DNA from: Candidatus Omnitrophota bacterium
GTDB taxonomy: Bacteria > Omnitrophota > Gorgyraeia > Duberdicusellales > 4484-171
NCBI GenBank assembly: GCA_003154195.1
Contig: PMCS01000006.1
Span: 17,676-81,675, forward strand
DNA: 64,000 nucleotides
Direction of reading: 5' to 3'
Of this stretch, positions 21,511 to 54,217 are shown one piece after another (within the stretch, counting starts at the first letter, position 1; each line of letters begins with the position of its first letter). The position numbers and the translations under genes are program-made. The notes beneath the pieces were generated by a model. That model did no database searches and had not been told where the DNA came from. It saw only the letters and a list, made by a program, of their open reading frames with translations.

Positions 21511-21598
21511 GAACTATATGAAAAATAAAGTCGTAAATTTTACCGCAAAAACACAGCAAATATGTTATAATTTAGCCAAGAACATAGGAGGAATAAAA

Positions 21599-38208: not shown

Positions 38209-38245
38209 AAAATTCGCTGATTTTTCCATATTTTTTGCTTATTTT

Positions 38246-38322: not shown

Positions 38323-38368
38323 TAAATAAAATTCTGTGGTTGTTTTTGACAAAACAAAGAGGACATTT

Positions 38369-38884
38369 ATGTTTGAGATATATAAGAATAGCCTGGCTAA
38401 AGGCCTGGTCACCCGCAAAATTGCCAAAGAAACAATTTTGTCGAAAGATTTCGATAACCTTGGGTTGGAATTAAAAGCGTTAATCAAAGAGAAGTTCGGC
38501 CGGTCATTTCACATCCGTGAGGTTGATACCGGTTCCTGCGGCGGCTGCGAATCGGAAATTATCGCCTGCTCCAATCCCGTTTACGATATCCAGAGATTCG
38601 GGGTGGATTTTGTCGCTTCGCCCCGCCACGCCGACGCGTTACTGGTCACCGGCCCGGTATCGAAAAATATGCTGCTTGCGTTAAAGAAGACTTATGACGC
38701 GATGCCGGAGCCTAAATTCGTTATTTCTTTAGGTGATTGCGCTGCCGATGGAGGAGTTTTTAAAGAGTCATATTATACTATCGGCGGTGTCGATAAAGTC
38801 TTGCCGGTGGTTTTACATATCCCCGGCTGTCCGCCCACTCCGACGCGAATTATCAGCTGTCTTATGTCTTTTTTGCGAAAATGA
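38369..38884 (+). CDS. Hydrogenase small-subunit homologue (NuoB/HycG family, [4Fe-4S])
   Basis: Start at MFEIYK after SD aagagga (track ORF begins 38336). Motifs GSCGGCESEIIAC, GDCAADGG and GCPPTP, the NuoB/HycG cluster-binding cysteines. Confidence 0.9.
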   Translation: MFEIYKNSLAKGLVTRKIAKETILSKDFDNLGLELKALIKEKFGRSFHIREVDTGSCGGCESEIIACSNPVYDIQRFGVDFVASPRHADALLVTGPVSKNMLLALKKTYDAMPEPKFVISLGDCAADGGVFKESYYTIGGVDKVLPVVLHIPGCPPTPTRIISCLMSFLRK

Positions 38885-38939
38885 TATTTTTTTAGTTTTT
38901 TCCTTGCCCGCGAGCCTTCCGAAGAATAAAATAGATTAA

Positions 38940-40785
38940 ATGGATAAAATAAAACTCGGCTGTTTTAAAAAACATTTTTACGCGTATATCGCTTTATCTA
39001 TCGGGATTATCCTTTCCCTACTTCTTTTTATTTATTCCCGTAAACTGGAAACAAAATATTTACATGGTGAATTTAATCTTCTGGCGCGGGATCGCGCCAG
39101 CATCATTATTAACGGCGTATTGGATAACCTGGATTTCGTTAAATCAATAGCTCATTTTTACGCCGGCAGCGTAAGCGTGGAGCGCAACGAATTCCACGAA
39201 TTTACCCGCCAAACCCTTACCGAGCGTCACGATATTTACGAGTTTCGCTGGCTTAAGCGAGTTTCCGGGCCGCAGCGCCAGGCGTTTGAAGAAACGGCTT
39301 CCCGGGAGTTGGGCTATAATTTTTATATCAAAGATCGCGCCGGGGAAGGCGATTTCCTGAGAGCGCCATCGCGCGAAGAATATTTCCCGGTTTTTTTTAT
39401 CGAGCCCGGAGACGCGGCTAAAAATAAAATGTTAGGTTTTGACGCCGCCGGCGTACCGGAACGCTTACGGGCGATGAAAAAGGCTTGCGCTACCGGTGAG
39501 GCGGTAATCGTCCCGGAGTTGGTGATTTTTGGTGAATCAAAATTTAAAACCGCGACGCGTATTTATATCCCTGTCTACCTAAATGGTATTCCCCATAAAA
39601 CTATTGAAGAGCGCCTTAAGAATCTTACCGGTTTCGCGGTCGTTTTATTTAATATGGAAGCTATGGCGGATATTCTACTCAAGGATATGCGCGGGATGGG
39701 TATTGATACTTACGTATATGATGAAGCGCTTCCCGCAGGCAAACGCCTTATTCTAGTTGATTGCTCCCTCGCCCCGGGAAAGCCTATCGTGCCAATTTTC
39801 GGGGAAGAACAGCTAAGGGGTACAACCGGCATCGCCTGGAAAAGGTCGTTTAACGTGGCTGATTCAAAATGGACGATAGTCTGCCGCGCTGCCCCGGCAT
39901 TTTTAAAAAACCATCGGCAGAGGGTGCTAACTCCCTGGTTTATTTTAGCGGTATGCTTACTTATTACCCTAATCGCTGCGCTTTATATCGATAACCTCGT
40001 TAGGCGTGCTTCTATTGTTCAAGCGTTGGTTGAACAAAAAACCGAAGAGTTAAAAGTTCTGCACGCGCAACTCGCTCAGCAGTTCAAAATGGCCGCCATC
40101 GGGCAATTGGCCGGCGGCGTTGCTCATGAAATAAATAATCCCCTCGCAGGTATTTTAAATAATCTCCAATTGATAAAGATGAAGATGGGGGACGGCCGGA
40201 AATTTGAGGTTGCAGAATTTAAGGAAACTTTACAAGTTATGGAAAAATCCGGCCTGCGATGCAAGAATATAGTCAAATCCTTGATTGATTTTTCCGGGCC
40301 TTCGAGTGAATATCTGGAGCCGGTATCGCTTAATGATCTTGTGGCGAAAGCCAGGGAATTGGTTTCCGAAAAATTAAAGATTAACCATATCGATTTCATC
40401 GAAGAACTAGAGCCGGACATGCCTAAAATCATCGGCGACCGCCGGCTTCTACAGCGGGCGGTTTTTGATCTTCTGTCTAATTCTTGCTGGGCAATCGGCA
40501 AAAAAAAACGGGCCTTCCGGCGGTACGGTGCGGATAAAGACATGGCATGAGCAAAAAAACAATCTTGTCGCCATCGCTATTTCCGACACCGGTATCGGCA
40601 TCCCTAAAGAAAATATAAAGAAAATATTCGAACCTTTTTTTACGACTAAAGATGTAGGTGAGGGGACTGGCCTCGCCTTGGCTTTGGTATATAGCGTCGT
40701 TAAGCTTCACAAGGGTACGATTGAGGTGGAAAGCGAAGTTGATAACGGCGCGACATTTACGATAAAACTGCCGGTTGGTGGATAA
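38940..40785 (+). pseudogene. Sensor histidine kinase (periplasmic CHASE-like sensor, TM, HisKA, HATPase_c) interrupted by a +1 frameshift in an A9 run
   Basis: Frame 1 (38940..40550) carries the sensor, TM2 and the H-box MAAIGQLAGGVAHEINNPLAGI and ends ...[14 protein letters not shown]. The ATP-binding G-boxes continue in another frame (40465..40785: GGTVRIKT...DTGIGIP...[10 protein letters not shown]). The junction is caaaaaaaaacggg at about 40499-40508. Deleting one A restores [14 protein letters not shown]. Confidence 0.8.
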
Positions 40786-40836
40786 GCGAGTAAGCAAATA
40801 ATTGGACTTTTTAAAATAAGACGGTCGTGAGACGTC

Positions 40837-40865
40837 TTGACATCAAGGCATCTATATGCTATATT
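40837..40865 (+). promoter_or_regulatory. Canonical sigma-70 promoter TTGACA -17 nt- TATATT driving vapBC; GACGTC palindrome overlaps the -35
   Basis: Hexamers and spacing read directly. SD ggaggtgg and ATG 40885 follow about 20 nt downstream. Confidence 0.6.
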
Positions 40866-40884
40866 ATTAGTGGAGGTGGATTAG

Positions 40885-41127
40885 ATGAAAGCCTATACTT
40901 TAAGATTAAACGATAATATTTTGGACGCGTTAAAGCATATCGGCATAAAAGAAAGGAAAACCGTAAGAGAAATCATGATTGAGCTTATTGAAAGAAAGAT
41001 TTCCACGGGCAGCTCCAAAAGCGAGAGCATCAAAGAACAACGAGAAATGGAAAAAATTATGCATTTACTGAGCCGCGCTCCTGTTCCCAGAGTTACAAAA
41101 TCGATACGCGATGATAGAGAGAGATGA
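40885..41127 (+). CDS. VapB-like antitoxin (ribbon-helix-helix/CopG-like)
   Basis: 80 aa (MKAYTLRLNDNILDALKHIGIKERKTVREIMIELIERKI...). ATGA overlap with the downstream PIN gene. Confidence 0.6.
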   Translation: MKAYTLRLNDNILDALKHIGIKERKTVREIMIELIERKISTGSSKSESIKEQREMEKIMHLLSRAPVPRVTKSIRDDRER

Positions 41128-41510
41128 TGCTTTTTGACGCGAGCAGTATTTACGCGGCGATTGGTAAGGGTAAAACTTCAAGCTTAAAGGGCTTTTATTC
41201 GGTAATTCTTGCCCGGTACGAGCTCGGCAATATTATCTGGAAGGAAACTATTTTAAGAAAAACATATTCTGTCGGCGAAGGGATTTCCGTGGTTAATTTT
41301 TTTGACAAAGTTTTAAGTGAAATGAAATTACTGCATCCCGACCTCGATGCAGTTTTTAAAACTGCCGTGCAGTTTCATCTAAGCTATTACGATGCTTCCT
41401 ATGTATACGCGGCTATTAACGCGAAAATACCTCTTGTGACCGAAGACGAAAAGATTAAAGATAAAGCCGGTAAGCTGTTGAAGATTTATTCGTTTGATGA
41501 CATTGCTTGA
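41124..41510 (+). CDS. VapC toxin (PIN-domain ribonuclease)
   Basis: 128 aa. N-terminal MMLFDASSIYAAI (PIN Asp), ...DASYVYAAINAKIPLVTEDEK (distal acidic residues). Confidence 0.75.
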   Translation: MMLFDASSIYAAIGKGKTSSLKGFYSVILARYELGNIIWKETILRKTYSVGEGISVVNFFDKVLSEMKLLHPDLDAVFKTAVQFHLSYYDASYVYAAINAKIPLVTEDEKIKDKAGKLLKIYSFDDIA

Positions 41511-41526
41511 ATTCGCAAGGAGAAAT

Positions 41527-42315
41527 ATGAAGCTGGATGCCTACAATAAAATTATCTGGGCAGTTATCGGCACCGGCGCGATCTTAGGTTTTATCCTGGT
41601 TATCGCACTTTCCTTAGCCGGCATCTTTTATTCACAGACTAAGGGCGTACGAGTGGAACAAGCCCGCAGCCTCAAGCCTCAGGGAAAAGTTCTGGTTTAT
41701 TACGATCCGATTAATCTTACGCAATCACCGTATACCATGATTCCCGTCGGTTTCAAGGTTGTGCCTGGTTCCGAGGCCGCTACCGGTGACCGTTACAATA
41801 TAGGAATGGCGTGCAAGCGCTGCATTTCCGGTTCTTATTCCGGCTATCGCGGCGAGTTCAACAACATTGTTTTTAGAAGTAAAACGGATAATAGTTCTTT
41901 TTTGTTGTTGGATAAAAAAGGCGTGATTACTTCGTTTTATTACCCGTCTCATGAACAAGGGGAAAAAGATAATAAAAAAGATTTTAATTTTCTATTGTTT
42001 TCTATAGTCGAGGATGATACCAGCGGCGACGGCGTATTGAACGATAGAGATGCCGATACCGTTTATCTGTCCAATTTATCCGGCAAGAATCTGATTAAAA
42101 TAAGCCCGGCAAATACAAAATTGGTAGATTGGAACATCGATTATGATAGCCAGAAAGCTTACCTGACTTTACGGCGTGATTCTAACAATGACAAAAAGTT
42201 TAACGATCATGATGAAATGGATATTATTGCGGTAGACGCGGCCAATCCTCAAGGCGCGGTGACGCTGGTAGACGAAAAAACCAAAGCGGCGATAAAAGCG
42301 ATTTTGAATAAATAA
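41527..42315 (+). CDS. Hypothetical membrane-anchored protein
   Basis: Start after SD aggag (track ORF begins 41494). One N-terminal TM helix, then a 230-aa domain rich in D/N/K with no recognisable motifs. Confidence 0.55.
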   Translation: MKLDAYNKIIWAVIGTGAILGFILVIALSLAGIFYSQTKGVRVEQARSLKPQGKVLVYYDPINLTQSPYTMIPVGFKVVPGSEAATGDRYNIGMACKRCISGSYSGYRGEFNNIVFRSKTDNSSFLLLDKKGVITSFYYPSHEQGEKDNKKDFNFLLFSIVEDDTSGDGVLNDRDADTVYLSNLSGKNLIKISPANTKLVDWNIDYDSQKAYLTLRRDSNNDKKFNDHDEMDIIAVDAANPQGAVTLVDEKTKAAIKAILNK

Positions 42316-42491
42316 GCTACACTCAAGAAAACCATCAAGCAAATATTTCCTGCACGCCCTGAATGCTCTACATATAAAAATTAGTGTTTTCACTTGAGCA
42401 TTACCGTTTTTCTGCTAAAATCTTTTAAGAACAATTAGTTTTTGCTGCTTACTCCTTACTACTAAATATTACTATAAGTTTATGCTATATC

Positions 42492-42564
42492 GCCGACGTA
42501 GCTCAGTTGGTAGAGCAGCTCATTCGTAATGAGCAGGTCGAAGGTTCGACTCCTTTCGTCGGCT
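42492..42564 (+). tRNA. tRNA-Thr (anticodon CGT)
   Basis: Acceptor stem GCCGACG/CGTCGGC, D-arm TAGCTCAGTTGGTAGAGCA, anticodon stem-loop GCTCA-TTCGTAA-TGAGC, T-arm GAAGG-TTCGACT-CCTTT. No encoded CCA. Confidence 0.9.
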
Positions 42565-42678
42565 CGTTGTTTGTTATCCGTTAGCGATGGTGGTATAAAA
42601 TAGCTCATCGTAACTCGAGGGCCTAATACATTGTCGGAAGTAATAAGCGCCTTCGGTGCCCTGCGGCCTGGCGGCCGC

Positions 42679-42696
42679 AGATTACTTGCGACTCCT
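42679..42696 (+). repeat. 18-nt direct repeat of the tRNA-Thr 3' end (cgactcctttcgtcggct), about 115 bp downstream of the tRNA
   Basis: Exact duplicate of tRNA positions about 42547-42564. The pattern resembles an attL/attR remnant of an integrative element. Confidence 0.6.
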
Positions 42697-42959
42697 TTCG
42701 TCGGCTAATGAAACTTAGCTGGTTGCAAGCTCGTAAGAGCGCCGCAACCAGATTAAATAGAAAAATATCTCACCACAGAGAACACGGAGGGTACAGAGAA
42801 AAACATTTATTCTAAATATTTTTTTATTTCTCTGTGAGCTCTGTGCGCTCTGTGGTAAAAATTTTTGTTTTTATTTATCATCAAATTTGTGTCATGTATT
42901 ATTGAAACCGTTTAATTTTTTAATTGCCAATCGACAAATTTATAATCAGAAATAACTCT

Positions 42960-44270
42960 ATGTTCCTTTCTTACATCAAAATTCTCAAAAAACGTAACTT
43001 CAGTTTACTCTGGATCGGCCAGGTGATATCCCAGTTCGGCGACCGGCTTACCCAGATGGCTCTGATCGGGTTAGTTTATCGCCTCGAGCCGGGTTCTTCG
43101 ATGAGCCTGGCTAAAATCTTAAGCCTTGCCGTAATTCCCGTATTCATCATATCCCCCGTATCCGGCGCTTATGTCGACCGCTGGAGTAAACGTAAAACGA
43201 TGTGCATCAGCGATTTTATGCGTGGCACGTTCATTTTGCTTGTGTCGTTGACCTTTTTAAAATTTCACTCGATGCTTCCGGTTTATATTTTTGTTTTTCT
43301 TTCTTTTTGCGCCGGCAGATTTTTTATACCGGCTAAGATGGCGATGATCCCTTCCCTGGTGGACAAGGATGAATTATTCTTGGCGAATTCCCTTGTTTCG
43401 GTAACTTCGATGATCGCCGCGGTGCTGGGCTTTGGTCTGGGCGGCGTGATTGTGGAGAAGTGGGGGGTAGAGTCGGGATTTATTATCGACGCGTCGACTT
43501 TTTTCCTTTCTTCGCTGCTGATTCTTTTTATGCGCGCCAACGACGGCAGTGCGTTTATACCGAAAGATATCCTGGAACTGGGCAGGGAAGCGATTAAAAA
43601 TGTAAAGAATTCTCTTATCTTTGAAATCAAAGACGGCTTGAAATATCTTTTTAAGTCTAGCGAAACGATTTATTCGGTAAAAATCAGGGTAGTATTATTC
43701 GCAGCCCTGGGTTCGCTATATACGGTATTCATTGTGTTTATGCAGAAATGCCTGAATACCGGCACTGCCGGCTTGGGTTGGCTTGCCGTAGCCGCTGGTT
43801 TGGGCATGTTTTTGGGTACGGTTATTTACGGCAAGGTCGGAAAATATTTACCGGTGAAACCGGCAATTAATACTTCCCTTGCCCTTTGCGGGATGCACAT
43901 GCTCGCCTTCGGTTTTCTTCTTAAAAGCCACCCGAATAAAATTTTGGCATTCGCGTATTGCCTTATTTTAGGTATCCTTGCTTCGCCGATCGAAATCGCT
44001 TTGAATACTTTAATCCATAAAGAGAGCGAGAATGCTTTTTTGGGAAGAATTTTCAGTTCCCTGGAGGTAATTCTCCACTTGGCGTTTCTTGTTTTTATGT
44101 TCCTGGCTTCTTTCCTGGCGGAATTGATGACTCCGTTTACTATTATCGCTTCAGTAAGCGTAATGATCATTGTTTTCGCGGTTGTGGAAATGATTGCGGG
44201 AGAAAGGACAGGAAAATCGGATACGGAAAAAAGAGAAGGTGCAGCAGCGAGCGTTTCTTCCGGGTTATAA
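42960..44270 (+). CDS. MFS transporter (12 TM)
   Basis: Start at the ATG 42960 (track ORF begins at TTG 42924). N-terminal MFS signature LLWIGQVISQFGDRLTQMALIGLV. 436 aa. TATAAT at 42941-42946. Confidence 0.8.
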   Translation: MFLSYIKILKKRNFSLLWIGQVISQFGDRLTQMALIGLVYRLEPGSSMSLAKILSLAVIPVFIISPVSGAYVDRWSKRKTMCISDFMRGTFILLVSLTFLKFHSMLPVYIFVFLSFCAGRFFIPAKMAMIPSLVDKDELFLANSLVSVTSMIAAVLGFGLGGVIVEKWGVESGFIIDASTFFLSSLLILFMRANDGSAFIPKDILELGREAIKNVKNSLIFEIKDGLKYLFKSSETIYSVKIRVVLFAALGSLYTVFIVFMQKCLNTGTAGLGWLAVAAGLGMFLGTVIYGKVGKYLPVKPAINTSLALCGMHMLAFGFLLKSHPNKILAFAYCLILGILASPIEIALNTLIHKESENAFLGRIFSSLEVILHLAFLVFMFLASFLAELMTPFTIIASVSVMIIVFAVVEMIAGERTGKSDTEKREGAAASVSSGL

Positions 44271-44280
44271 TAAGCAGATA

Positions 44281-44500
44281 ATTTTATTTTTTGCGCAGCA
44301 ATCCCCGTTGTTGGGGATAATTCGACTATCCCCTACGGGGATAGTTCAACTAAAGACATTTGTTGCGGCTTCGCCACACAAATGTCTAAGTTTCACTACA
44401 GCCTCAATCGGCGTCCCCCTTGCGCGGGGCTTGTAATGAAACTTGCCCCGGGGCACCGGGCTTAGTTTCATTATCGGCTAAGTCTCATTAAAAGAAAATT
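44281..44500. repeat. Mosaic repeat (CTCATTAA family, long form) forming the purN upstream region
   Basis: ttttattttttgcgcagcaatccccgttgttgggga; ggataattcgactatcccctacggggatagttcaactaa; gacatttgttgcggcttcgccacacaaatgtc; tttcactacagcctcaatcggcgtcccccttgcgcggggc; gaaacttgccccggggcaccgggcttagtttcattatcggctaagtctcattaaaagaaaattATG. Confidence 0.9.
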
Positions 44501-45103
44501 ATGAATATAGCAGTTTTTGCTTCGGGTAACGGAACGAATTTTGAAGCGATCGCTAAGGCGATAAGGCGCGGTTATATAAAAGCGAACCTTGCGCTTTTGG
44601 TCTGCGATAATCCCGCAGCTTTTGTTATCAAGCGGGCAAAGCGTCTTAAGATAAAATCAGTCTTAATCGACCGGAATTTATTTTCTACAAAGAACGATTT
44701 TGAAAAAGAAATCATCAGAAACCTGAGAAAAGAAAAGGTTAGTTTGATTATCCTTGCCGGTTTCATGCGGCTGTTAAGTCCCGGCTTTGTCGCGCTTTAT
44801 CGTAACAAGATAATAAATATCCACCCCGCGATATTGCCTTCTTTCAAGGGTATTGATTCGATAAAGAAGGCTTACGAATACGGGTGCAAGGTTGCCGGCG
44901 TTACCGTTCATTTTGTCGACGAAAAAACCGACCACGGTCCGATAATTTTGCAGGAAGCGGTCAAGATTAAAACCGGGATGAGCCTTTCCGGTTTAGAGCG
45001 CCGTATTCATCGCCTGGAGCATAAACTTTACCCCCTGGCTGTTAAGTTATTTGTTGAAGGGGAACTGAAGGTGAGGGGGAGGAGAGTTATTCTTTTGAGT
45101 TGA
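44501..45103 (+). CDS. purN: Phosphoribosylglycinamide formyltransferase
   Basis: MNIAVFASGNGTNFEAIAKA...IINIHPAILPSFKGIDSIKKAYEYGCKVAGVTVHFVDEKTDHGPIILQEAV, the PurN signature. Confidence 0.92.
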   Translation: MNIAVFASGNGTNFEAIAKAIRRGYIKANLALLVCDNPAAFVIKRAKRLKIKSVLIDRNLFSTKNDFEKEIIRNLRKEKVSLIILAGFMRLLSPGFVALYRNKIINIHPAILPSFKGIDSIKKAYEYGCKVAGVTVHFVDEKTDHGPIILQEAVKIKTGMSLSGLERRIHRLEHKLYPLAVKLFVEGELKVRGRRVILLS

Positions 45104-45139
45104 CCCGGAGGCGTGTTATATCCAAGTTTTTATTTTTTT

Positions 45140-45232
45140 AGCCACCGATTGTCACGGATAAACACGGATTTTAATAAAAAACTAAACAAATACATTGTTT
45201 ATCCGTGACAATCAGTGTTAATCCGTGGCTAA
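45140..45232. repeat. Palindromic element family P copy 2 (gccaccgattgtcacggataaacacggat ... atccgtgacaatcagtgttaatccgtggc)
   Basis: Arms match those at 38246..38322 but in swapped order. Sits between purN and the convergent lipoprotein gene. Confidence 0.8.
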
Positions 45233-45247
45233 AATAAGCCGTTGTAG

Positions 45248-46084
45248 CTAATTTCCTTCCAAGAGCGCTTTCCGGGAATAAAAAACCGCGTTTTTGTGGG
45301 CGATATCATTTATCTCAAATGAGTTGATTTCCGGGGCGTCGTAGATTTTTAAAAACCGGCGGATTGATTTTTTTATCTCGTCACCGGCGTTAAACGATAC
45401 CGCGGTTTTGTTTACCGGCGTTACGTCGAGAATCACGGAAAGGCGGCCGTCGGCATAATAAGAATACAGGTCGTTTGTTTTGAAATTTTTGACCATTTCC
45501 TTGTCGGTTAATTTTCGTTCCAGGTTCTGTTTTATGAGATAGGCAAGAAAATTGCCCATCTCCATTTCCGGCATGGTTATATGTTTTCCCAGCGCATCGC
45601 CGATTGCTTCGGTGGTAAGCAAGAAAGTAAAAACTTCCCGCTCCTGCCATTCGCTTAACGAGATCATGCCCGCGTCGACTTTCATTATATCGAGAACCGT
45701 ACCGATATAATAAAGGTCGGCGCCGGTTTTTATATCGGAAAAAACAAACGCATAAAATTTTGGCCGTTTTTCCATACTGAGGATGACGCGTTTTAGCGCG
45801 GTAAAAATCTGGCGCATTTTTGTGTTGGCGTCGTTGTCGAAGGTTTTCTTTTCGGTAAGGATTTTATTGAGGGGAACGTAAACCCAGATAGTGTCGCCGG
45901 CCTCGCGGACAACCGGTTTTACATTAAATTCTTTTCCGCAGATATTAACCAACGATGTTTCGATGTTTTTACGGTTATAGGTATATTTAGGTTTAGAAGG
46001 AGAACAAGCCGGCAAGCATAAGAGAAAAAAAACAACAAGGACGTGCTCAACCAGCTTCTTTAAATACCGCTTCGATTTCGTCAT
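45248..46084 (-). CDS. Hypothetical lipoprotein
   Basis: Lipobox-like FFLLCLPAC. 278 aa. Its 5' end overlaps the 3' end of the upstream FtsH gene by 38 nt, so the start is uncertain. Confidence 0.5.
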   Translation of the reverse strand: MTKSKRYLKKLVEHVLVVFFLLCLPACSPSKPKYTYNRKNIETSLVNICGKEFNVKPVVREAGDTIWVYVPLNKILTEKKTFDNDANTKMRQIFTALKRVILSMEKRPKFYAFVFSDIKTGADLYYIGTVLDIMKVDAGMISLSEWQEREVFTFLLTTEAIGDALGKHITMPEMEMGNFLAYLIKQNLERKLTDKEMVKNFKTNDLYSYYADGRLSVILDVTPVNKTAVSFNAGDEIKKSIRRFLKIYDAPEINSFEINDIAHKNAVFYSRKALLEGN

Positions 46085-49067
46085 AATTGAGTTCTTCTTT
46101 TTCTAATAGCCTGGCCATCAGCTTTTCTAATATCGCGTCTTTTTCTTTTAGCAGCGTTTCGGTTTCTTTCATGCATTCCTGCATTATGTCTTGCACGTCC
46201 GCGTCGAGTTTAGCCATCATTTCTTCGGACATCAATGTTTGCCCGGTACGCTGGTTGGTCAGCGAGGAGAAGTTGCCGATAAACCCGGATTTTCCCATGC
46301 CCCACGACCAGACCATCTGGTGCGCATACTGCATGGCGTTACTGAAATCGCTGCTTACGCCGTCGGATGTAGCGCGGCATTTAAGTTTTTCCGCAGCGTA
46401 TCCACCCAGGGAAACTTTTATACTGCTTAAAATCTGTATTTTGTTATGGACCAATGTTTCAGCTTTCCCCGGCGCCCACATCACGCCGGCGGTTTCTTTG
46501 CGGGGAATAATCGAGAGTTTAAATATTTCCCGGCTGCCGGCTAAGAAATAAGTTACCACCGCGTGCCCCGCTTCATGAACGGCGGTAGAGCGTTTTTCTT
46601 CGTCGCCTAATTTTATACGGCGTTTTAGCCCTAATTCAACGCGTTCGCGCGCTTCATCAATTTCTTTTAATCCCATTGTTTCTTTTTGATTGCGTACGGT
46701 GATCAGCGCTCCTTCGCGTACAATGTTTGATATATCGGCAGGGCTCCAGCCGGCAGTAACGCGGGCGAGCCGGTTGCTGTCGATTTCCTGCGCGTTAAAT
46801 TTAATCTTCGCGAGATAGTAATCAAAAAGTTTGGTGCGGTCTTCCAGGCCGGGTAATTCAACGTATAGTTTTCGGTCAAACCTTCCCGGCCGCAAGAGCG
46901 CCGCGTCAAGAAAATCTTCATTGACGTTGGTCGCGCCGATGATCACGATATTATATTGCTCATTTTTTTCTTTGAGGCCGTCAAGCTCGGTCAAGAGCTG
47001 GTTTAAAGTCTGGTTGTATTCGCGGTCGCCGCCGGAGCGCGCGTCTTCCCGCTTGGCGCCCAGCGCGTCGATTTCATCGATAAAAATGATACAGCCGCCT
47101 TTGGATGAAGCTAATTCCCGCGCTTCCTGGAAAAGATGGCGGATGCGGCTGGCGCCTACGCCGACATACATTTCAACAAATTCCGAACCGGATTTCGCCA
47201 GAAAAGGCAGGCCCGCTTCGTTGGCCATGGCCGAGGCAAGATAGGTCTTACCGCATCCCGGCATCCCAAACATTAAAAGCCCGCGGATGATCCTGCCGCC
47301 TACTTCGTTTAACTGCGCGTGGTCTTTGATCAGGCTGACTATTTCTTTCGCTTCCTGCTTAGCGTCGTCCATGCCGATAACGTCGTCCCAGCCGATTTCG
47401 TTTTCCGATTTTTTCGTAATTTTATCCATAAGGCGAACCTTGCCGTATTCTTTGAAAATCGCCTCGAGCGCGTCGTAATCCAGCTCGTTTTTAGAAACCA
47501 ATTCTCCGGCAATACGCTCCAGGATAACCATTTCTTTGCGCAATAAGTCATGAACCTCGTTAAAGCACTTGTTGATAATATCGGCCTTATCTTTTTCGGC
47601 GATCTGGCGCGAATGCATATCCCACTGTCCGGAAACGGTATTGGGCCCCGATGTTCCCATACCCCACTTGAAAGCCATACTTTCGGCAACCACATTGGCG
47701 GTTTCAAGGTCGTTTCCCACGCCGCTGGTGGTAACGCCGAATTTTATTTTTTCGGCGCAATAGCCGCCTAAGCAAATCCGTATTTCATTCAATAAATCGT
47801 CTTTGTCGGGAGCAAAAACTTCTTCTTTTTGCGCGATCCAGGTCGAGCCCAGAAGGCTTGTCCGGGGGATAATGCTGGCTTTAAAAACGTCTTTTGTCGG
47901 AACCATAAGATAGGTAACGATGGCATGTCCCGCTTCATGATAGGCGGTAGAAATTCGTTCTTTTTCGCTCATCGTAAGGTTTATTTTGATGCCCATGGCA
48001 AGACGTTCGCGCGCTTCCTCGATGTCGGACATCATCACCGACTGTCTTTTTTTGCGGGCCGCGATTAACGATGCTTCGCGGACAATATTGGCGATGTCGG
48101 CGGGAGTGTTTCCGATGGTCAATCTTCCCAGCCGGTCAATTTTTACGTCACTGGTGTTGTATTGGATTTTGTCCAGATAATACTTAAAGATTTCTCCGCG
48201 GTCTTTAAGGTTAGGGAAGCCGATATAAATTTTTCGGTCAAAACGGCCGGCGCGCATCAGGGCCGAGTCAAGTTCATTTTCCGGCACATTGGTGGCGGCG
48301 ACGATAATAATATTTTTCTCTTTTTGCTTGATGCCGTCCATTTCCGCGAGCAACTGGTTGACGGCCATATTATAGCTTTCCGCGCCGCCCAGGCCGAAAC
48401 CGCGCGTGCGCGGCCGGGCTACGGAATCGACTTCGTCGATAAAAATAATACATCCGCCTTTCATGTCGGCAAGTTCGCGCGCCAGCTTAAAGAGTTTCTT
48501 TATTTTCATCGCGCCTAAGCCGACGATAATCCCTTCCAGTTCGCTGCCGATAACCGAGAGAAAGGGTATGCCGCATTCGGTAGCGATTGCTTTTGCCAGG
48601 TACGTTTTGCCGACGCCTGGTTGGCCGATGAGGAGCAAGCCTTTAATCAAAGGGGCGCCGATAGTGGTAAGACGCGTGCGTTCCCGGATAAGCTCTACTG
48701 CTTCCCATGCTTCGCGTTTGGCATCTTCCATACCGATTACGTCTTTCCATTTTATCCCGATTTCATCGCCCCGGAGAGCTTTAGTCTGTAATTTTGAAAA
48801 CTCACTATAGCCGCCGCCCCGGTACATCCAGTAGAGGAAGTATACGTAAATGGCGCCGCCCATGATCGAGCCGATAAGGTAGAGGTAAAGCTGGTAACCC
48901 ATACCGGCCTTCATCTGTTCCTTATAGAATGATTCCATGCCCATCCAGGCTTTAGCGCTGGCGTAGATTACCGTAATCAATGAAATCACCAGGAGCGCTA
49001 ATACCGTAATGACAAGAATGCGCAGCCAGTATAATCGTAAAAAGATTTTTGCTTTTCTTGGATCCAT
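46047..49067 (-). CDS. ftsH: Tandem double-FtsH: membrane-anchored protein with two complete AAA+ ATPase plus M41 zinc-metalloprotease units in one polypeptide
   Basis: SD aggag. Two N-terminal TM helices with no periplasmic domain. Unit 1: Walker A GQPGVGKT, Walker B IIFIDEVD, SRH ATNVPENELDSALMRAGRFDRK, HEAGH. Unit 2: GMPGCGKT, IIFIDEID, ATNVNEDFLDAALLRPGRFDRK, HEAGH. 1006 aa. Confidence 0.9.
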   Translation of the reverse strand: MDPRKAKIFLRLYWLRILVITVLALLVISLITVIYASAKAWMGMESFYKEQMKAGMGYQLYLYLIGSIMGGAIYVYFLYWMYRGGGYSEFSKLQTKALRGDEIGIKWKDVIGMEDAKREAWEAVELIRERTRLTTIGAPLIKGLLLIGQPGVGKTYLAKAIATECGIPFLSVIGSELEGIIVGLGAMKIKKLFKLARELADMKGGCIIFIDEVDSVARPRTRGFGLGGAESYNMAVNQLLAEMDGIKQKEKNIIIVAATNVPENELDSALMRAGRFDRKIYIGFPNLKDRGEIFKYYLDKIQYNTSDVKIDRLGRLTIGNTPADIANIVREASLIAARKKRQSVMMSDIEEARERLAMGIKINLTMSEKERISTAYHEAGHAIVTYLMVPTKDVFKASIIPRTSLLGSTWIAQKEEVFAPDKDDLLNEIRICLGGYCAEKIKFGVTTSGVGNDLETANVVAESMAFKWGMGTSGPNTVSGQWDMHSRQIAEKDKADIINKCFNEVHDLLRKEMVILERIAGELVSKNELDYDALEAIFKEYGKVRLMDKITKKSENEIGWDDVIGMDDAKQEAKEIVSLIKDHAQLNEVGGRIIRGLLMFGMPGCGKTYLASAMANEAGLPFLAKSGSEFVEMYVGVGASRIRHLFQEARELASSKGGCIIFIDEIDALGAKREDARSGGDREYNQTLNQLLTELDGLKEKNEQYNIVIIGATNVNEDFLDAALLRPGRFDRKLYVELPGLEDRTKLFDYYLAKIKFNAQEIDSNRLARVTAGWSPADISNIVREGALITVRNQKETMGLKEIDEARERVELGLKRRIKLGDEEKRSTAVHEAGHAVVTYFLAGSREIFKLSIIPRKETAGVMWAPGKAETLVHNKIQILSSIKVSLGGYAAEKLKCRATSDGVSSDFSNAMQYAHQMVWSWGMGKSGFIGNFSSLTNQRTGQTLMSEEMMAKLDADVQDIMQECMKETETLLKEKDAILEKLMARLLEKEELNYDEIEAVFKEAG

Positions 49068-49283
49068 GAGTTTTTGCTCCTGAAATCCGGCCTCAGGGAA
49101 TATGCCGTCTTGGCCGAATTCATCTTATTTTTACGAAGCGGGTTCCCGCAATAAAAGTATTTTTGTTTATAAGCGGGATTAACTACCCTATTGAAAAGAT
49201 ACCATAATTTTTATTAAGTATCAAGGAGAAAGTGTAAATTATTTGTTGCGCGCCGCGATTTTAGTTTGTATACTATAAAAATA

Positions 49284-49395
49284 GGGTTAAGGATTCGGGT
49301 CAAGATGCTGGCATGAGTGATGGTTAAGGTTGAATTTTTTAAAGTCATAACCCCATCCCTAGCCTACACGGGTATCTTAACCCTGACCCTTACCG
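49284..49395. repeat. G-tract/C-tract hairpin element, family H variant (GGTTAAGG / CCTTAACC units) in the ftsH-SPFH divergent promoter region
   Basis: agggttaaggattcgggtcaag...tggttaaggttg ... ccccatccctagcc...tcttaaccctgacccttacc. Ends about 15 nt before the SD of the SPFH gene. Confidence 0.75.
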
Positions 49396-49413
49396 ATTTA
49401 TTTAAGGAGGTGC

Positions 49414-50499
49414 GTGATGCGCGATTATAACGAAAGCATAAACCCGGAAATAGTCGAGAAGCCCGATTTATTTTTTTCCCGCCTCAAGGAATTCTTTTTT
49501 AAATTTATTTTGCCGGCGATTATCTTAATCGTAATTTTTAAAACTTGCTTTATTTATATCAAGCCCAACGAATTCGGTATAAAGCAGGTAAACATCGGCT
49601 TTCGGACCGGCCTCCAGCATACGGTATATCAGACGGGTTTTCATTTTTTAATGCCGTTTGGTTTCGAGATGATGCACCGTTTCCCGAAAAATATTCAGGT
49701 ATTTGAACTTACCAATTCTCCCCTGACGGCTTCGGCGGGATCGCGCCTTGAGAAAGCCGCGCATATCCAGACTTCCGATGGATTTTTCGTGGATGTCGAC
49801 GTTAGTATAATCTATCGCATTGATGACCCTTATAAAGTTATAACTACGGTTGGCCCGGGCCTGCTTTATGAAGATAGCGCTATTATCCCCAAGGTCGAAC
49901 CAAAACTTAAGGAATCTTTAGGCGAGATGACGACTGAAGAGTTTTATAATAGCCCGTTACGGGTTAAAAAAGTAGCCAGGGCGAAAGAATTGCTGAATAA
50001 AGAATTAGAGCCCAAGGGCATCAAGGTTGAACATGTATTGGTGCGTTATTTTATTTATAGCGAAGAGATCCAGCGCAATATTGAAGAGAAAAAATTAAAG
50101 GACCAGCTGGTGTTTACTAACCAGGCTAAAGCAAGGGCCACGGCGGAAGAGGCGCTGGTCAAAAAAACCACGCAGGAAGGGGCGGCGAATATTAAAGTTA
50201 AGTTAGAGGAAGGCAGGGCATACGCGGTAAGAACGATAGCGGAAAAAGATTTGTATGTGCGCACCAAGAAAGCCGAGGGCGATCTTCTGGTAAAACTTGC
50301 CGAGGCGAGGAAAACCGAATTAATCAACCAGGCCTATCAGAAGAGCGGTTCCGATAAGTTAATCGGCCTTAAGATGGCCGAAGTGTACAAAGGGTTAGAC
50401 GTGATTATGCTTTCTTCCAGCGGCCAGTATGGGATAAACCCCCTGAATTTAGAAAATTCCTTAAAGATGTTCGGCATCGAGGATAAAGGCGATAAGTGA
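49414..50499 (+). CDS. SPFH/band-7 domain protein (HflK/HflC-like FtsH modulator candidate)
   Basis: SD aaggagg. N-terminal TM anchor, then an SPFH domain (...IKPNEFGIKQVNIGFRTGLQHTVYQTGFHFLMPF...) and a coiled-coil tail. Divergent from the tandem FtsH. Confidence 0.8.
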   Translation: MMRDYNESINPEIVEKPDLFFSRLKEFFFKFILPAIILIVIFKTCFIYIKPNEFGIKQVNIGFRTGLQHTVYQTGFHFLMPFGFEMMHRFPKNIQVFELTNSPLTASAGSRLEKAAHIQTSDGFFVDVDVSIIYRIDDPYKVITTVGPGLLYEDSAIIPKVEPKLKESLGEMTTEEFYNSPLRVKKVARAKELLNKELEPKGIKVEHVLVRYFIYSEEIQRNIEEKKLKDQLVFTNQAKARATAEEALVKKTTQEGAANIKVKLEEGRAYAVRTIAEKDLYVRTKKAEGDLLVKLAEARKTELINQAYQKSGSDKLIGLKMAEVYKGLDVIMLSSSGQYGINPLNLENSLKMFGIEDKGDK

Positions 50500-50799
50500 C
50501 GTTGTGAGAAATGAGGGAGATTGATGAAGAAGGGAAAATAGGAAATTACCACAGAGGCCACGGAGGAAGAATTAATCCTCTGTGTTCTCTTAAATGAAGA
50601 ATAGCACATAAACCAATAACCAAGGAAAATAAGAAAGAAAATTTTTGCAATATCTAAAATCGTAAAGTTTGTTTTTTAAAGAAAGGTTTAAGGAAGATAT
50701 AAAAGGGTTTGTAATTCAGGAGTACACAGAGATAAGAAAAAATTATAATTCATTGTTATCCAATAATTTCTCTGTGGTTAGAAGACTGCAGAGGATAAT

Positions 50800-51849
50800 A
50801 TGGAGGGCAGAATGGCGAAAATACAAAAATTCAATAATTTCATCGTTCCGGCAATCGTAATCGGAGTTATCGCGGCGTTTTTTCCTCATTCCACGAAATC
50901 AACGGAAGTGGGTGTGCGCGTGATCAAGTGGTCGCCTTTCGTCAAGAAAGGCGTTCTTCAGATGGTTTACGCTCCCGGCGCGACCTATTTCTTCCCTCCG
51001 ATAATAAACGAGTGGTATGTTTTTGATACCAAGCTTCATAATATGGAGTTGACTACAGTCGGTAATCGAGGCGCGCGCCCCGGCAGAGACGACCTTGTTT
51101 TTAAAACCATCGATGGCAACGATATCGGCCTTGACGTTATATTTTCTTATCGTATCGATCCGACAAAGGCGCATTATATTTTAGAATATGTCGCTAAGAA
51201 TAATACAGAATTGGAGGAGAAGGTTGTCCGTACGTTGACTCGCAGTAGCGCCCGTGATATTTTCGGCGAATTAAAAACGGAAGATTTTTATGTCGCGGAT
51301 AAGCGCACGGAAAAAGCGGACATGGTAAAAGAAGCCTTAAATGGCGTTCTTAATCCTTATGGTGTGATTGTGGAAAGCGTTTTGCCTAAAGATTATCGTT
51401 TTAACGAGGCTTATCAGCAAGCGATTGAAGATAAGAAGATTGCCGATCAGATGGCGGAACGTTTTAAATCGGAAACAAAAGCGACGTTTGAGGAATACCG
51501 CCAGAAGCTTCAGGACGCCCAGGGCGAGGTGAATAAGGTGGTGGCCGATATTAACGGTGAGTATGCTAAGGCGAAAATCGGCGCCGACGCTTACTACGAA
51601 CAGCAAGCGCTGATCGCTAAAGCCATTGAAATCGAAGGTATCGCTGAGGCTAAAGGTATCGAAAAAATGATTGAAGCGCTTAATTCCAGCGGCGGGAAAA
51701 CCATGGTCAAGCTGAAACTTGCCGAGGCTTTAATCGGTAAAAAGATTTATCTATTGCCGTTTTCCGACGCCGGCGGGCTCGATTTAAAAACTACCAATGT
51801 CAATGATCTCTTACGGGTTTACGGAACCCAGAAACTTGGCGGAGAATAA
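50800..51849 (+). CDS. SPFH/band-7 domain protein, second paralogue (HflC/HflK-like)
   Basis: N-terminal TM anchor FIVPAIVIGVIAAFF, an SPFH core (VGVRVIKWSPFVKKGVLQMVYAPGATYFFPP...) and a coiled-coil region. Confidence 0.8.
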   Translation: MEGRMAKIQKFNNFIVPAIVIGVIAAFFPHSTKSTEVGVRVIKWSPFVKKGVLQMVYAPGATYFFPPIINEWYVFDTKLHNMELTTVGNRGARPGRDDLVFKTIDGNDIGLDVIFSYRIDPTKAHYILEYVAKNNTELEEKVVRTLTRSSARDIFGELKTEDFYVADKRTEKADMVKEALNGVLNPYGVIVESVLPKDYRFNEAYQQAIEDKKIADQMAERFKSETKATFEEYRQKLQDAQGEVNKVVADINGEYAKAKIGADAYYEQQALIAKAIEIEGIAEAKGIEKMIEALNSSGGKTMVKLKLAEALIGKKIYLLPFSDAGGLDLKTTNVNDLLRVYGTQKLGGE

Positions 51850-51879
51850 TTTTTTATTCCTATTTTAAATTATTTCCCC

Positions 51880-52134
51880 CATCAGCGAAGCTGATGAGCA
51901 GATATTTTTTTACGCAGTAAACCCCTCCACCGATGTTCCGGGGTTCACCGCCTTCCTAAAATTAATATATCGAGGAAGCGGGATCCCGCCGAGTCGCTAC
52001 TCAGACGCAGGCGGGAAATTCGGCTATCCCCTTACGGGGATAATTCAACTAAGCCCGGGGTACCGGGCAAGTTTCATTACCACCTCGTGCTACGCCTTTC
52101 GGACTTGCGCTCGGTTAAGCCTCATTAAAAATAT
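51880..52134. repeat. Mosaic repeat (CTCATTAA family, long form) abutting the purU start
   Basis: atcagcgaagctgat; tttttttacgcagtaaacccctcc; ggggttcaccgccttcc; gcgggatcccgccgag; gcaggcgggaaattcggctatccccttacggggataattcaactaagcccggggtaccgggcaagtttcattac; cttgcgctcggttaagcctcattaaaaatatATG. Confidence 0.9.
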
Positions 52135-52986
52135 ATGAATAACGCTATTTTACTCATTTCCTGTCCGGATCGGCGGGGAATAACTGCGGCGGTCACCAAT
52201 TTCGTTTATCAAAACAACGGCAATATCGAGCATGCCGACCAGCATATCGACGCCCAGACTAATACTTTTTTTATGCGCATCGAATGGGCGCTCGACGGTT
52301 TCCGGATTGCCCGTGACGCGATTGCCGGGAAGTTCAGTCCAATCGCGAAAAAATTTACGATGACCTGGCCGCTTTATTTCAGCGATCGGCTGCCCCGCGC
52401 GGCGATTTTTGTTTCCGGCCATACCCATGTCCTCTACGATTTGCTTTTACGCTATAAAGAAAAACAATTCAATTGCGAGATCCCCCTGATCATTAGCAAC
52501 CGCTCCGACGCGCGCCATATCGCCGATAATTTTGGGATTGAATATTATGAATTCGCTAAAACTTCGAAAAATAAAAACAGCGTGGAAAAAAAAGAAATCG
52601 CCCTGCTTGCGCAGAAAGGTATCGATACGATTGTTTTAGCGCGTTATATGCAGATTCTGTCAAAAAATTTCGTAAACCGTTTTCCTGACCGCATTATCAA
52701 TATCCACCACTCCTTTTTACCTGCTTTCGCCGGCGCCAATCCCTACGCGCAGGCTTATAACCGCGGCGTAAAAATTATCGGCGCGACCAGCCATTACGCA
52801 ACCCCTAAGTTAGACGCCGGCCCGATTATTGAGCAGGATACCTGCCGCATCAGCCACCGCGATTCGATTGATGACCTGAAGCGTAAAAGCATGGATTTGG
52901 AAAAGGTCGTTTTAGCCCGTGCCTTGCGCTGGCACCTCGAGCGCAAAATCCTCGTTTATAATAACAAAACCGTAGTCTTCGATTAA
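52135..52986 (+). CDS. purU: Formyltetrahydrofolate deformylase
   Basis: N-terminal ACT domain (AILLISCPDRRGITAAVTNFV), then a formyltransferase core IINIHHSFLPAFAGANPYAQAYNRGVKIIGATSHYATPKLDAGPIIEQD. Confidence 0.9.
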   Translation: MNNAILLISCPDRRGITAAVTNFVYQNNGNIEHADQHIDAQTNTFFMRIEWALDGFRIARDAIAGKFSPIAKKFTMTWPLYFSDRLPRAAIFVSGHTHVLYDLLLRYKEKQFNCEIPLIISNRSDARHIADNFGIEYYEFAKTSKNKNSVEKKEIALLAQKGIDTIVLARYMQILSKNFVNRFPDRIINIHHSFLPAFAGANPYAQAYNRGVKIIGATSHYATPKLDAGPIIEQDTCRISHRDSIDDLKRKSMDLEKVVLARALRWHLERKILVYNNKTVVFD

Positions 52987-53059
52987 TACAAATGATAGTG
53001 ATAATAGTGATAGGGGACACCCTTCATAACTTATTGCACACCAAAAAGTTATAAATAAA

Positions 53060-53551
53060 TTACTTACTTCGTCGTCCGCGCCCTTTGGGGTAAAATCGCT
53101 CGCCAAATTTAGCCAACTGGGTAAGGAAGTGGTCAGAGCCTATTGCCGGGACACTGCTTTTGAATAATTTTGTCTCTTCCCGATTATCTTGACTTACCCA
53201 TTGCTTATATTGCTGGGGATCGGTTAACCCATGCCCTTCAATTTCGGGATCGATATCGGTAATGCCGTCGTTTAACCCATTAAGCAGCGGAATGGTCCAA
53301 AAGATGAAAACGAACGTAATTACGCTTATAATCAGGACGCGATGATGAGGATGTTCGCGGGGTTTTTTCTCAACGTCGAAGCTGTTGATATTGAAAGTTT
53401 TCGTAAGTTTATTTGCGATATGCACGAAGTTTTGCTGAAGGGACCGGAAGGGAAAACTCCTTATATGCCGGAGCTTTCGGCAGAGCTTTATGGTGCCAGA
53501 TATGCTGAAGAAATGGGAGAGAGTATTGTACATCGTGCGCGCGCGCTTCAA
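53060..53551 (-). CDS. Hypothetical single-pass membrane protein (doubtful)
   Basis: 163-aa ORF. The TM and C-terminal part (53060-53340) is non-overlapping. The basic N-terminal 70 codons are antisense to the first 70 codons of the Fic-like ORF. May be spurious or use a different start. Confidence 0.3.
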   Translation of the reverse strand: MKRARTMYNTLSHFFSISGTIKLCRKLRHIRSFPFRSLQQNFVHIANKLTKTFNINSFDVEKKPREHPHHRVLIISVITFVFIFWTIPLLNGLNDGITDIDPEIEGHGLTDPQQYKQWVSQDNREETKLFKSSVPAIGSDHFLTQLAKFGERFYPKGRGRRSK

Positions 53552-54217
53552 TGGAGCCAGGAACTATCCGAGCGATTACTGAAAATATTAAAAAATATCA
53601 AGGGAGAATACCTTAACAACGATCGCAGGGTTACCCTTGGATTGTTGGTCGGTATCGCTCAATTTTATTTTTACGGTCTGAGAAGATACCCCTTTCTCGG
53701 TGGTAATAATTCTCTACTCATGAACATTGTTAATGATTTATTACTCCTATGCTTGGGTAAGCGGTATTTCATAGGAAACATTGATTCTGTTCATTCTTAT
53801 GCCTGGGACGATAAAAATCGGCCGGAGCTTCTTTACGCGTATTTTTTACAACGGGTGAAGATCGCCAACTCCGATAACGATAAAGTAAATTGGACGCCGG
53901 AAAAATTGGCAAGATTTAATATCACCCAGGCGGATTTTGACGATATAATAAAATATCTTTCAAGGCAGTCGCAAAGGGACGATCTCAGTTCCAGCCCAAC
54001 CGATTTTGGCGCCGCCAAAATTGATGACGGATTTTTCGCGGCAGCGGAAAATCCGGGGGGTATTGACTTCCGCCGTAAGAATTTCGGTCTCAGTTCGTCG
54101 CCCGCCGCCTCCGCTGTCGGCACCGCTTCCCCGGTTTCCGAGATAACCGGCCTCACCTTTACGATCATTTCCCTCACCGATATACCGCCGAAGGAATTAG
54201 CCTTGTTGATAAACTAA
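53342..54217 (+). CDS. Fic-fold protein with degenerate active-site motif
   Basis: GLRRYPFLGGNNSLLMNIVNDLLLL aligns with the Fic core HPFxDGNGRxxRLLMNLLL, with His to Tyr and GNGR to GNNS changes. Low-complexity Ser/Ala tail. The start may be at a later Met (53420, 53465 or 53513). Confidence 0.45.
   Translation: MMRMFAGFFLNVEAVDIESFRKFICDMHEVLLKGPEGKTPYMPELSAELYGARYAEEMGESIVHRARALQWSQELSERLLKILKNIKGEYLNNDRRVTLGLLVGIAQFYFYGLRRYPFLGGNNSLLMNIVNDLLLLCLGKRYFIGNIDSVHSYAWDDKNRPELLYAYFLQRVKIANSDNDKVNWTPEKLARFNITQADFDDIIKYLSRQSQRDDLSSSPTDFGAAKIDDGFFAAAENPGGIDFRRKNFGLSSSPAASAVGTASPVSEITGLTFTIISLTDIPPKELALLIN

Follow-up and report, generated by a model that had tools for sequence, protein, structure and literature searches.

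FtsH-type proteases are universal agents of membrane protein quality control in bacteria, mitochondria, and chloroplasts. In canonical FtsH (E. coli FtsH; 2CE7, 2DHR, and 7VHP), a classic-clade AAA+ module is followed by an M41 protease domain, and two N-terminal transmembrane (TM) helices flank a folded periplasmic domain. Here we describe a relative of this enzyme encoded in a 64,000-nucleotide stretch of DNA from a Candidatus Omnitrophota bacterium (GenBank assembly GCA_003154195.1, contig PMCS01000006.1, positions 17,676 to 81,675; the whole stretch is called the window). The gene (window positions 46047 to 49067, minus strand) specifies a chain of 1,006 amino acids (aa) that has the same domain order, N-terminal helices, and motifs as canonical FtsH but differs in carrying two AAA-M41 units per chain, in lacking the FtsH_ext domain, and in having a lipoprotein gene as a constant companion. 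It differs further in its Walker A sequences (GQPGVGKT in unit 1 and GMPGCGKT in unit 2), and neither unit reaches the 600-bit equivalog cutoff of the FtsH family model. The architecture is genuine and conserved, has gone unstudied in a protease that is otherwise among the best known, and comes with a new partner protein.

Several described systems share one or another feature of this tandem protease. The m-AAA proteases (Yta10/Yta12 and AFG3L2/SPG7) and the type A and type B FtsH proteins of chloroplasts and cyanobacteria (PMC3339871) likewise bring two diverged paralogs together, and the protease site of one can be dispensable; alternation within one ring would be a further likeness under the model we prefer, which for the tandem protease is a proposal. 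Unlike those paralogs, the tandem units are parts of one polypeptide, an arrangement that would set their ratio at 1:1, and one unit alone carries the anchor. FtsHi and Ycf2 pseudoproteases (PMC10500165 and PMC11266112) have kept the M41 domain after loss of HExxH, as have 20 of the 41 double forms compared below, in which the motif reads YEAGH. In contrast to these pseudoproteases, unit 1 in the window keeps HEAGH, the double forms join inactive and active modules in one chain, and they are bacterial rather than plastid. Type II AAA+ proteins (p97/Cdc48, NSF, and ClpA/ClpB; PMC5447069) also hold two classic AAA modules per polypeptide, and p97 and Cdc48 gave strong sequence matches to each AAA module of the tandem protease, but here the modules are parted by a full protease domain and each has an M41 of its own. 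Engineered, covalently linked ClpX pseudohexamers (10.1101/704999) join ring neighbors and fix subunit order; they are laboratory constructs, whereas the tandem protease is a natural gene kept across a clade. The closest solved chains, YME1, bacterial FtsH, and AFG3L2, are all single-unit. The sequence-only reading of this DNA knew of no description of such an architecture, and in agreement with that our search of full-text literature, whose coverage excludes most subscription-journal papers, turned up no report on FtsH in Omnitrophota and none on a tandem FtsH that occurs in nature.

The open reading frame (ORF) begins with ATG, and its sole stop codon is terminal, with no in-frame interruption. 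Two AAA and two M41 units had been read from the sequence, and Pfam models recovered them: AAA (PF00004, E = 4e-75), AAA_lid_3 (E = 1e-19), and Peptidase_M41 (PF01434, E = 5e-73) each matched two stretches, as did the NCBIfam model TIGR01241 (FtsH_fam), with 854 bits for the whole chain. From the N terminus, the protein consists of a TM hairpin, AAA+ and M41 modules (unit 1), a linker of 21 aa, and a second set of AAA+ and M41 modules (unit 2), and all of the corresponding DNA is on the minus strand. The hairpin (about aa 14 to 81; 48825 to 49028) was modeled by AlphaFold2 (AF2) as two long helices, residues 3 to 42 and 46 to 82, separated by a 3-residue turn, with about 20 residues between the hydrophobic cores; a custom hidden Markov model (HMM) recognized the same module in single-unit relatives. 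FtsH_ext found no match in the tandem protease, although the same model did match other proteins in our set (P0243 and P0249). Because of the short turn and the missing FtsH_ext match, we regard this segment as a membrane hairpin without a periplasmic domain, as had been proposed: the two N-terminal helices typical of the FtsH family are present, but the folded domain that they would flank is not.

Both units also retained the catalytic signatures that the sequence-only reading had listed (Walker A and B, second-region-of-homology arginines, and HEAGH). In unit 1, the AAA+ module (aa 105 to 362; 47982 to 48755) contains Walker A at residue 148 (K154), Walker B (IIFIDE) at residue 207 (D211/E212), sensor-1 N260, and arginines R272 and R275; its pore-1 loop reads IIVG, and the aromatic residue is gone (I181). 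The unit 1 M41 domain (aa 366 to 538; 47454 to 47972) has HEAGH at residues 377 to 381 and D453. The linker (aa 539 to 559, KEYGKVRLMDKITKKSENEIG; 47391 to 47453) was modeled with low confidence, with a predicted local distance difference test (pLDDT) score below 50 at residues 548 to 555. In unit 2, the AAA+ module (aa 560 to 816; 46620 to 47390) contains Walker A at residue 601 (K607), Walker B (IIFIDE) at residue 660 (D664/E665), sensor-1 N714, arginines R726 and R729, and a pore-1 loop that reads MYVG, and the M41 domain (aa 820 to 1006; 46050 to 46610) has HEAGH at residues 831 to 835 and D907. D453 and D907 are presumably the third zinc ligands, as in FtsH structures. Thus, the classic AAA+ motifs and the M41 HExxH with a downstream acidic residue, both traits of the FtsH family, occur twice in the chain, and by their motifs both units of this organism's protease look catalytically competent.

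Unit 1 (aa 86 to 545) and unit 2 (aa 546 to 1006) aligned end to end with 46% identity (E = 5e-148). TIGR01241 was the top NCBIfam model for each of them, at 406 bits for unit 1 and 459 bits for unit 2; a single-unit relative, P0056, scored 491 bits. The whole-chain score exceeds the 600-bit cutoff only because the scores of the two units add. Since each unit and P0056 fall below that cutoff, we place the clade, whose members have no periplasmic domain, as diverged and FtsH-like rather than as standard FtsH orthologs.

A simple explanation for a chain of this kind could be that a tandem duplication was collapsed or wrongly joined during assembly, or that a stop codon or frameshift was missed, and that the organism has two separate genes. 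Every assembly that we examined is metagenomic, and one relative (locus L094) does have the equivalent region as two neighboring ORFs in different frames. We used the sequence of the adjoining lipoprotein gene to reach public contigs of the same organism. The 3,021-nucleotide (nt) protease gene was intact and identical, with zero differences, in five independent public assemblies (NCBI GCA_003154645.1, contig PMEA01000111.1; ENA ERZ27250262 and ERZ27256921; JGI 3300031902; and Logan SRR6960558), so that no fewer than five samples or pipelines yielded it independently. More broadly, window positions 36948 to 54084 were 99.1 to 100% identical to PMEA01000111.1 and to contigs of four other samples, and such near-identical contigs indicate that the organism has been sampled repeatedly. 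The DNA of the two halves was 64% identical over 444 nt, with a longest near-exact match of 35 nt and no long repeat between the halves of the gene; halves so unlike in DNA make repeat collapse impossible. Finally, homologs in about 60 sequence clusters, at 48 to 73% identity, share the uninterrupted frame. Against this evidence an artifact is vanishingly improbable, and the separate genes or misassembly that would have undone the sequence-only reading were not found. We conclude that the ORF is a genuine single gene and a natural fusion.

The fusion is not unique to this genome. The survey of relatives that had been proposed found a double-form family of about 60 clusters (at 90% identity) in public metagenome-assembled genome (MAG) data, and the 48 to 73% identity given above refers to full-length homologs. 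All homologs with a named source were labeled as MAGs, mostly Candidatus Omnitrophota or Omnitrophica, and a minority bore the labels Aureabacteria, Patescibacteria, Deltaproteobacteria, and, once, an archaeon. Members are annotated as "AAA family ATPase" or "FtsH" and nothing more, and the domain assignments given here correct the annotation of MAG genes now labeled merely "AAA family ATPase." When 1.84 billion cluster representatives (50% clustering) were searched, the double family appeared as one representative, P0044. Among the best 150 matches of that search, judged by length and matched stretches, with 7 checked by Pfam, there was no chain of three AAA-M41 units.

Comparison of 41 double forms revealed different constraints on the two units. 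The Walker A lysine, the Walker B aspartate and glutamate, the sensor-1 asparagine, and both arginines were invariant in each unit. HExxH of unit 2 was likewise invariant, as was D907, and D453 was conserved in at least 90% of the sequences. At the first zinc histidine of unit 1, in contrast, the residue was H in 21 of 41 and Y in 20 of 41 (YEAGH), and the second histidine was lost in 7 of 41; a zinc histidine of unit 1 is missing from 21 of the 41 double forms. Two groups could be distinguished: group A, to which the protease of the window belongs, has retained the first of the unit 1 zinc histidines (nearly always as HEAGH) and has linkers mostly of 21 to 25 aa, and group B has YEAGH in unit 1 and a 26-aa linker of conserved sequence. 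Over all 41 sequences, the linker measured 21 to 27 aa. The mean pairwise identities of the four domains were comparable, at 51 to 69%, with 62% for the AAA module of unit 1 and 69% for that of unit 2.

This pattern of conservation suggests that both motors are needed, that unit 2 is the indispensable protease, and that unit 1 is gradually taking on an auxiliary function. A matching division between the need for ATPase and the need for protease is known from two-paralog FtsH rings and from FtsHi pseudoproteases. We think it probable that the fusion is selectively maintained, with both ATPase modules required and the unit 1 protease site dispensable. By the same reasoning from sequence, the locus is probably best described as a genuine, maintained fusion of two full FtsH cytoplasmic modules behind one membrane hairpin, forming an FtsH-like protease with a lipoprotein partner.

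The pore-1 loops raise the question of whether unit 1 grips substrate at all. The pore-1 residue of unit 2 was Tyr or Phe throughout the 41 double forms, and that of unit 1 was Phe or Tyr in 36 of them but Ile or Leu (IIVG or ILVG) in the window and in its closest relatives, P0001 to P0005. With the aromatic lost, unit 1 of this sub-lineage might hydrolyze ATP and serve as the anchor while only unit 2 translocates, which would leave three working pore loops, and the faster evolution of the unit 1 AAA module is in line with such a role. Nevertheless, the neighboring Gly183 and all ATPase residues are invariant, and aliphatic substitutions of the pore Phe in E. coli FtsH are reported to keep partial activity. 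We consider a non-gripping unit 1 doubtful; it would fit either of the assemblies discussed below.

Most members of the wider family have a single unit. We scanned metagenomes with a seed placed on the unit junction, which returned 80 loci of about 20 kb each, and called modules with three custom HMMs (N-terminal hairpin, AAA, and M41). In these loci we counted 65 ORFs with one complete unit (hairpin-AAA-M41, about 555 aa) and about 12 double forms. A scan of genome contigs with a full-length alignment and generic patterns returned mostly canonical FtsH; 5 of its 80 loci belonged to the family, all of them single-unit. The single forms had an intact HExGH in 65 of 65 cases and an aromatic pore loop, and their Walker A read GPPGCGKT in 64 of 65, which is also the consensus of the double forms. 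Two single-unit loci (L006 and L063) match the downstream synteny of the window, with the lipoprotein gene followed by PurN on the opposite strand and, at L063, by a major facilitator superfamily (MFS) gene as well.

Further architectures occur in the same family. P0085 and P0109 (about 1,100 aa) are arranged as hairpin-AAAx3-M41, and P0028 and P0048 (about 1,370 aa) as hairpin-AAAx4-M41; they have the same N-terminal hairpin and a single, C-terminal M41, and those with a named source are labeled Omnitrophica or Omnitrophota. In P0109, Walker B is lost from the second AAA module (ISNID). P0014 (L089, positions 548 to 4201; 1,217 aa) reads hairpin-AAA-M41-M41-AAA-M41, with one additional M41, and in locus L094 this layout is divided between the two neighboring ORFs mentioned above (7827 to 9524 and 9536 to 11515), which may be either a natural two-gene intermediate or the result of a frameshift.

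In a neighbor-joining tree, which is too crude for counting fusion events, unit 2 was monophyletic and nested among the single forms, and unit 1 was found on longer branches in two groups. The linker of the double forms is about as long as the stretch from TM2 to the AAA module in single forms. Since most members are single-unit and sit in the same synteny, we read the double form as having arisen in place, when the soluble part was duplicated in tandem and fused, after which unit 1 changed faster. The ancestral form would have been a single-unit gene of about 555 aa, and in one sub-lineage the portion from just after TM2 would have been duplicated in frame.

The protein encoded in the window is most likely a membrane-anchored, ATP-dependent, processive protein-degrading machine like FtsH, in which unit 2 would be the obligatory protease and the protease site of unit 1, intact here and degenerate in half of the family, could be dispensed with. 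In the assembly that we prefer, three chains would close into a ring of alternating units 1 and 2, with three membrane anchors only. It accords with the strict conservation of both ATPases and with documented FtsH rings of mixed paralogs or of live and dead subunits, and we hold it to be close to an even proposition. Several points weigh against it. Although the AF2 model of the 1,006-aa monomer had well-formed domains (pLDDT, 79.6), its predicted template modeling (pTM) score was 0.45, so that the relative position of the two units is not fixed. The linker, of only 21 to 27 aa, may be too short for a ring, in which it would have to run from where one M41 domain ends to the upper side of the neighboring AAA module. 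Natural tandem classic AAA proteins (p97, NSF, and ClpA/B) normally stack as two rings, and the relatives with three or four AAA modules fit stacking better than a shared ring. The low scores of the single units against the FtsH model mark a diverged relative whose substrates may differ, and the loss of the pore-1 aromatic means that unit 1 may not grip its substrate.

The alternative to which several of these points lead is a stack of two tiers, in which six chains would form a membrane-proximal FtsH ring from their first units and a second ring beneath it from their second units, tethered by the short linkers. Such an assembly would be akin to the type II AAA+ proteins, except that each of its ATPase rings would be followed by a protease disc. 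A short linker of conserved length, and in group B of conserved sequence, suits a connection from the bottom of one ring to the top of the next. Moreover, four AAA modules cannot tile a six-membered ring, and relatives with one M41 per chain, whether they have three AAA modules or four, need six chains for a protease disc. Loss of the unit 1 protease in half of the family would let a polypeptide reach the second tier uncut, but in the window the upper protease site is intact, so that substrate would be cut ahead of tier 2. A protease chamber with an AAA ring on either side is, as far as we know, unprecedented. In stacked AAA proteins one tier has often degenerated, whereas here both ATPase sites are invariant, and rings of the FtsH type that mix active and inactive subunits, such as those of FtsHi and m-AAA, are well documented (PMC10500165 and PMC11266112). 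Weighing these points, we regard the stack as unlikely, though a serious competitor of the three-chain ring.

The strongest and most constant association of the protease locus is with a lipoprotein gene. In the window, this gene (45248 to 46084, minus strand) is an ORF of 278 codons that overlaps the 3' end of the protease gene by 38 nt. Its product has, judged from sequence reading, the hallmark of a bacterial lipoprotein, a signal peptide ending in a lipobox cysteine (FFLLCLPAC followed by S in the window). This residue, Cys27, was conserved in at least 90% of the sequences in alignments of 40 and of 60 homologs, usually in the context L-x-G/A-C. Where the loci had enough sequence to be counted, a homolog lay directly downstream of the protease gene, usually overlapping it, at 58 of the 59 loci with single forms and 11 of the 12 with double forms (69 of 71 in all). 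This synteny backs the suggestion of the sequence-only reading that the two genes belong to one operon, and it predicts that they are almost always cotranscribed. At three double-form loci (L003, 11014 to 13065; L175, 9008 to 11005; and L176, 8966 to 10759), the downstream gene encodes a protein of 597 to 683 aa with TPR repeats, and the N-terminal part of the long TPR protein of L003 matches the partner lipoprotein.

A query with the single sequence returned 3 homologs of the lipoprotein, and one with an alignment derived from the loci returned 368. None of the 368 contains a Pfam domain, and among 120 that were listed, every one with a named source is a hypothetical protein of Omnitrophota or Omnitrophica. 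AF2 modeled the lipoprotein with high confidence (pLDDT, 92.3; pTM, 0.83) as repeated helix-strand-strand elements. A Foldseek comparison of this model with the Protein Data Bank (PDB) gave only weak, nonspecific matches, with TM scores of 0.25 or less, and a profile of the family matched no PDB sequence. S-adenosylmethionine synthetase and the secretion- or flagellar-ring proteins CdsD and FliF were among the low-probability Foldseek matches, and we did not use them as likenesses. From its constant position, we propose the lipoprotein as a new candidate regulator of the protease. Because lipoproteins face the periplasm, it would act at the periplasmic face of the anchor, where it may regulate the enzyme or take the place of the periplasmic domain that the protease lacks.

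In a wider and more tentative reading, Omnitrophota might have rebuilt FtsH as a modular kit, in which a lipoprotein of new fold supplants the periplasmic domain, cytoplasmic modules are strung together as AAA-M41, (AAA-M41)x2, AAAx3-M41, or AAAx4-M41 chains, and the (AAA-M41)x2 form assembles as a single-ring, three-chain pseudohexamer. If so, two specialized units would alternate in fixed order with three anchors only, with alternating live and dead protease sites in half of the lineage, and the protein would be a natural counterpart to engineered single-chain AAA+ rings for studies of subunit coordination. The sharing of work within such rings has usually been studied with artificial linkage or with pairs of paralogs whose order in the ring is uncertain. 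With a natural 1:1 chain, from a family that strictly conserves both ATPases but allows one protease site to decay, one could ask directly at which ring positions the various ATPase, pore-loop, and protease sites are needed, and how many anchors a membrane-extracting protease requires.

Upstream of the protease gene, across an intergenic region of 346 bp (49068 to 49413), two genes for SPFH/Band 7 proteins are transcribed divergently from it. Promoter-like matches in this region were not above chance (14 found versus 10.5 ± 3.1 expected). The first SPFH gene (49414 to 50499, plus strand; 361 aa; Pfam Band_7, E = 7e-29) and the second (50800 to 51849, plus strand; 349 aa; E = 1e-25) encode proteins with a visible hydrophobic, presumably TM, N-terminal segment that scored 101.6 and 91.3 bits with PF01145, well above the gathering threshold of 23.6, and that are 27% identical to each other by pairwise BLAST. 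A terminator-like hairpin lies between the two genes (50559 to 50584). The sequence-only reading had taken this arrangement as a mirror of the canonical association of FtsH with HflK and HflC, and this holds as far as superfamily and divergent orientation are concerned. The HflK model (TIGR01933; cutoff, 159.4) gave only 25.8 bits for the first protein and 31.9 for the second, however, and the HflC model (TIGR01932; cutoff, 134.4) matched neither. As a positive control, the corresponding neighbors at locus L003 scored 288.5 bits with the HflK model and 280.6 bits with the HflC model, both above the cutoffs.

We then looked for SPFH genes across the loci with an HMM built from six seeds. Upstream context was available for 12 double-form loci; a pair adjoins the protease gene in 3 of them (the window, L003, and L176) and is absent from the other 9 (L001, L004/L005, L086, L088, L092, L173, L174, L175, and L177). 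In the neighborhoods of about 70 single-form loci, the HMM detected no SPFH genes. In L003 (5876 to 7829) and L176 (3918 to 5856), the slot between PurU and the protease is occupied by an overlapping HflK-HflC pair, and the L176 pair is 61 to 68% identical to that of L003. The window pair, made up of two genes that are paralogs of each other, shows 23 to 29% identity to the HflK-type gene of those loci and none detectable to the HflC-type gene; its presence in that slot may reflect either replacement or extreme divergence.

One could still suppose that the locus encodes an obligate holoenzyme of the HflKC type, a double protease enclosed and regulated by an SPFH cage, and that the SPFH pairing is its central feature. 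Such a view can point to the adjacent, divergent genes of the window, to the genuine HflK-HflC pairs of L003 and L176, and to an adjacency specific to double forms. It must also accommodate the 9 double forms without a pair, including P0003, the closest relative with upstream context (69% identity), a window pair that is not orthologous to HflK and HflC, and a hairpin that parts its two genes. In E. coli, HflK contacts residues 62 to 64 of the FtsH periplasmic domain (10.1101/2024.08.09.604662), and because this domain is absent from the tandem protease, any interaction here would be of a different kind. We judge an obligate holoenzyme to be quite improbable. The support that the sequence-only reading drew from the SPFH genes is weakened by their sporadic occurrence, although the HflK-HflC pairs in the same slot at two loci uphold part of it. 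By these distributions, SPFH pairs beside the double form appear to be a recurrent, nonobligatory tendency that involves nonorthologous genes, and the two in the window would lie outside the core system as an optional, lineage-specific accessory.

The searches also returned long chains outside the family. P0249 (1,428 aa, in a cluster of 6 from JGI metagenomes) is unrelated to the family; its chain has two entire copies of FtsH on either side of a second hydrophobic segment, with FtsH_ext reported by Pfam on the first copy only. It is Ala-rich, has an organellar or eukaryotic look, and may be either a merged gene model or a true fusion. P0266 (2,124 aa, metagenomic) contains six classic AAA modules, with no M41 among its listed Pfam hits, and is a candidate single-chain AAA hexamer. 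P0281 (2,055 aa) was matched in six stretches.

Elsewhere in the window, intergenic repeats of 40 to 60 nt with a G+C-rich palindrome (GCCCGGGGTACCGGGC) occur at 34377 to 34418, 52019 to 52080, and, inverted, 59447 to 59507, with related copies at 27786 to 27873, 34241 to 34302, and 51939 to 51994; both orientations occur, and one copy lies directly 3' of the second SPFH gene. They may be REP-like elements or shared terminators. A search with PADLOC gave generic AAA matches only and no link to a defense system. The sole tRNA gene of the window is a tRNA-Thr (CGT) at 42492 to 42565 on the plus strand. Positions 14800 to 22200 are low in G+C content (0.36 to 0.40) and hold several small genes, mostly without a Pfam match (one has DUF2148), separated by intergenic blocks that recur (two of 244 nt that are 94% identical, others of 72 nt in 3 and 4 copies, and blocks that contain hairpins); this region resembles a cassette-type array.

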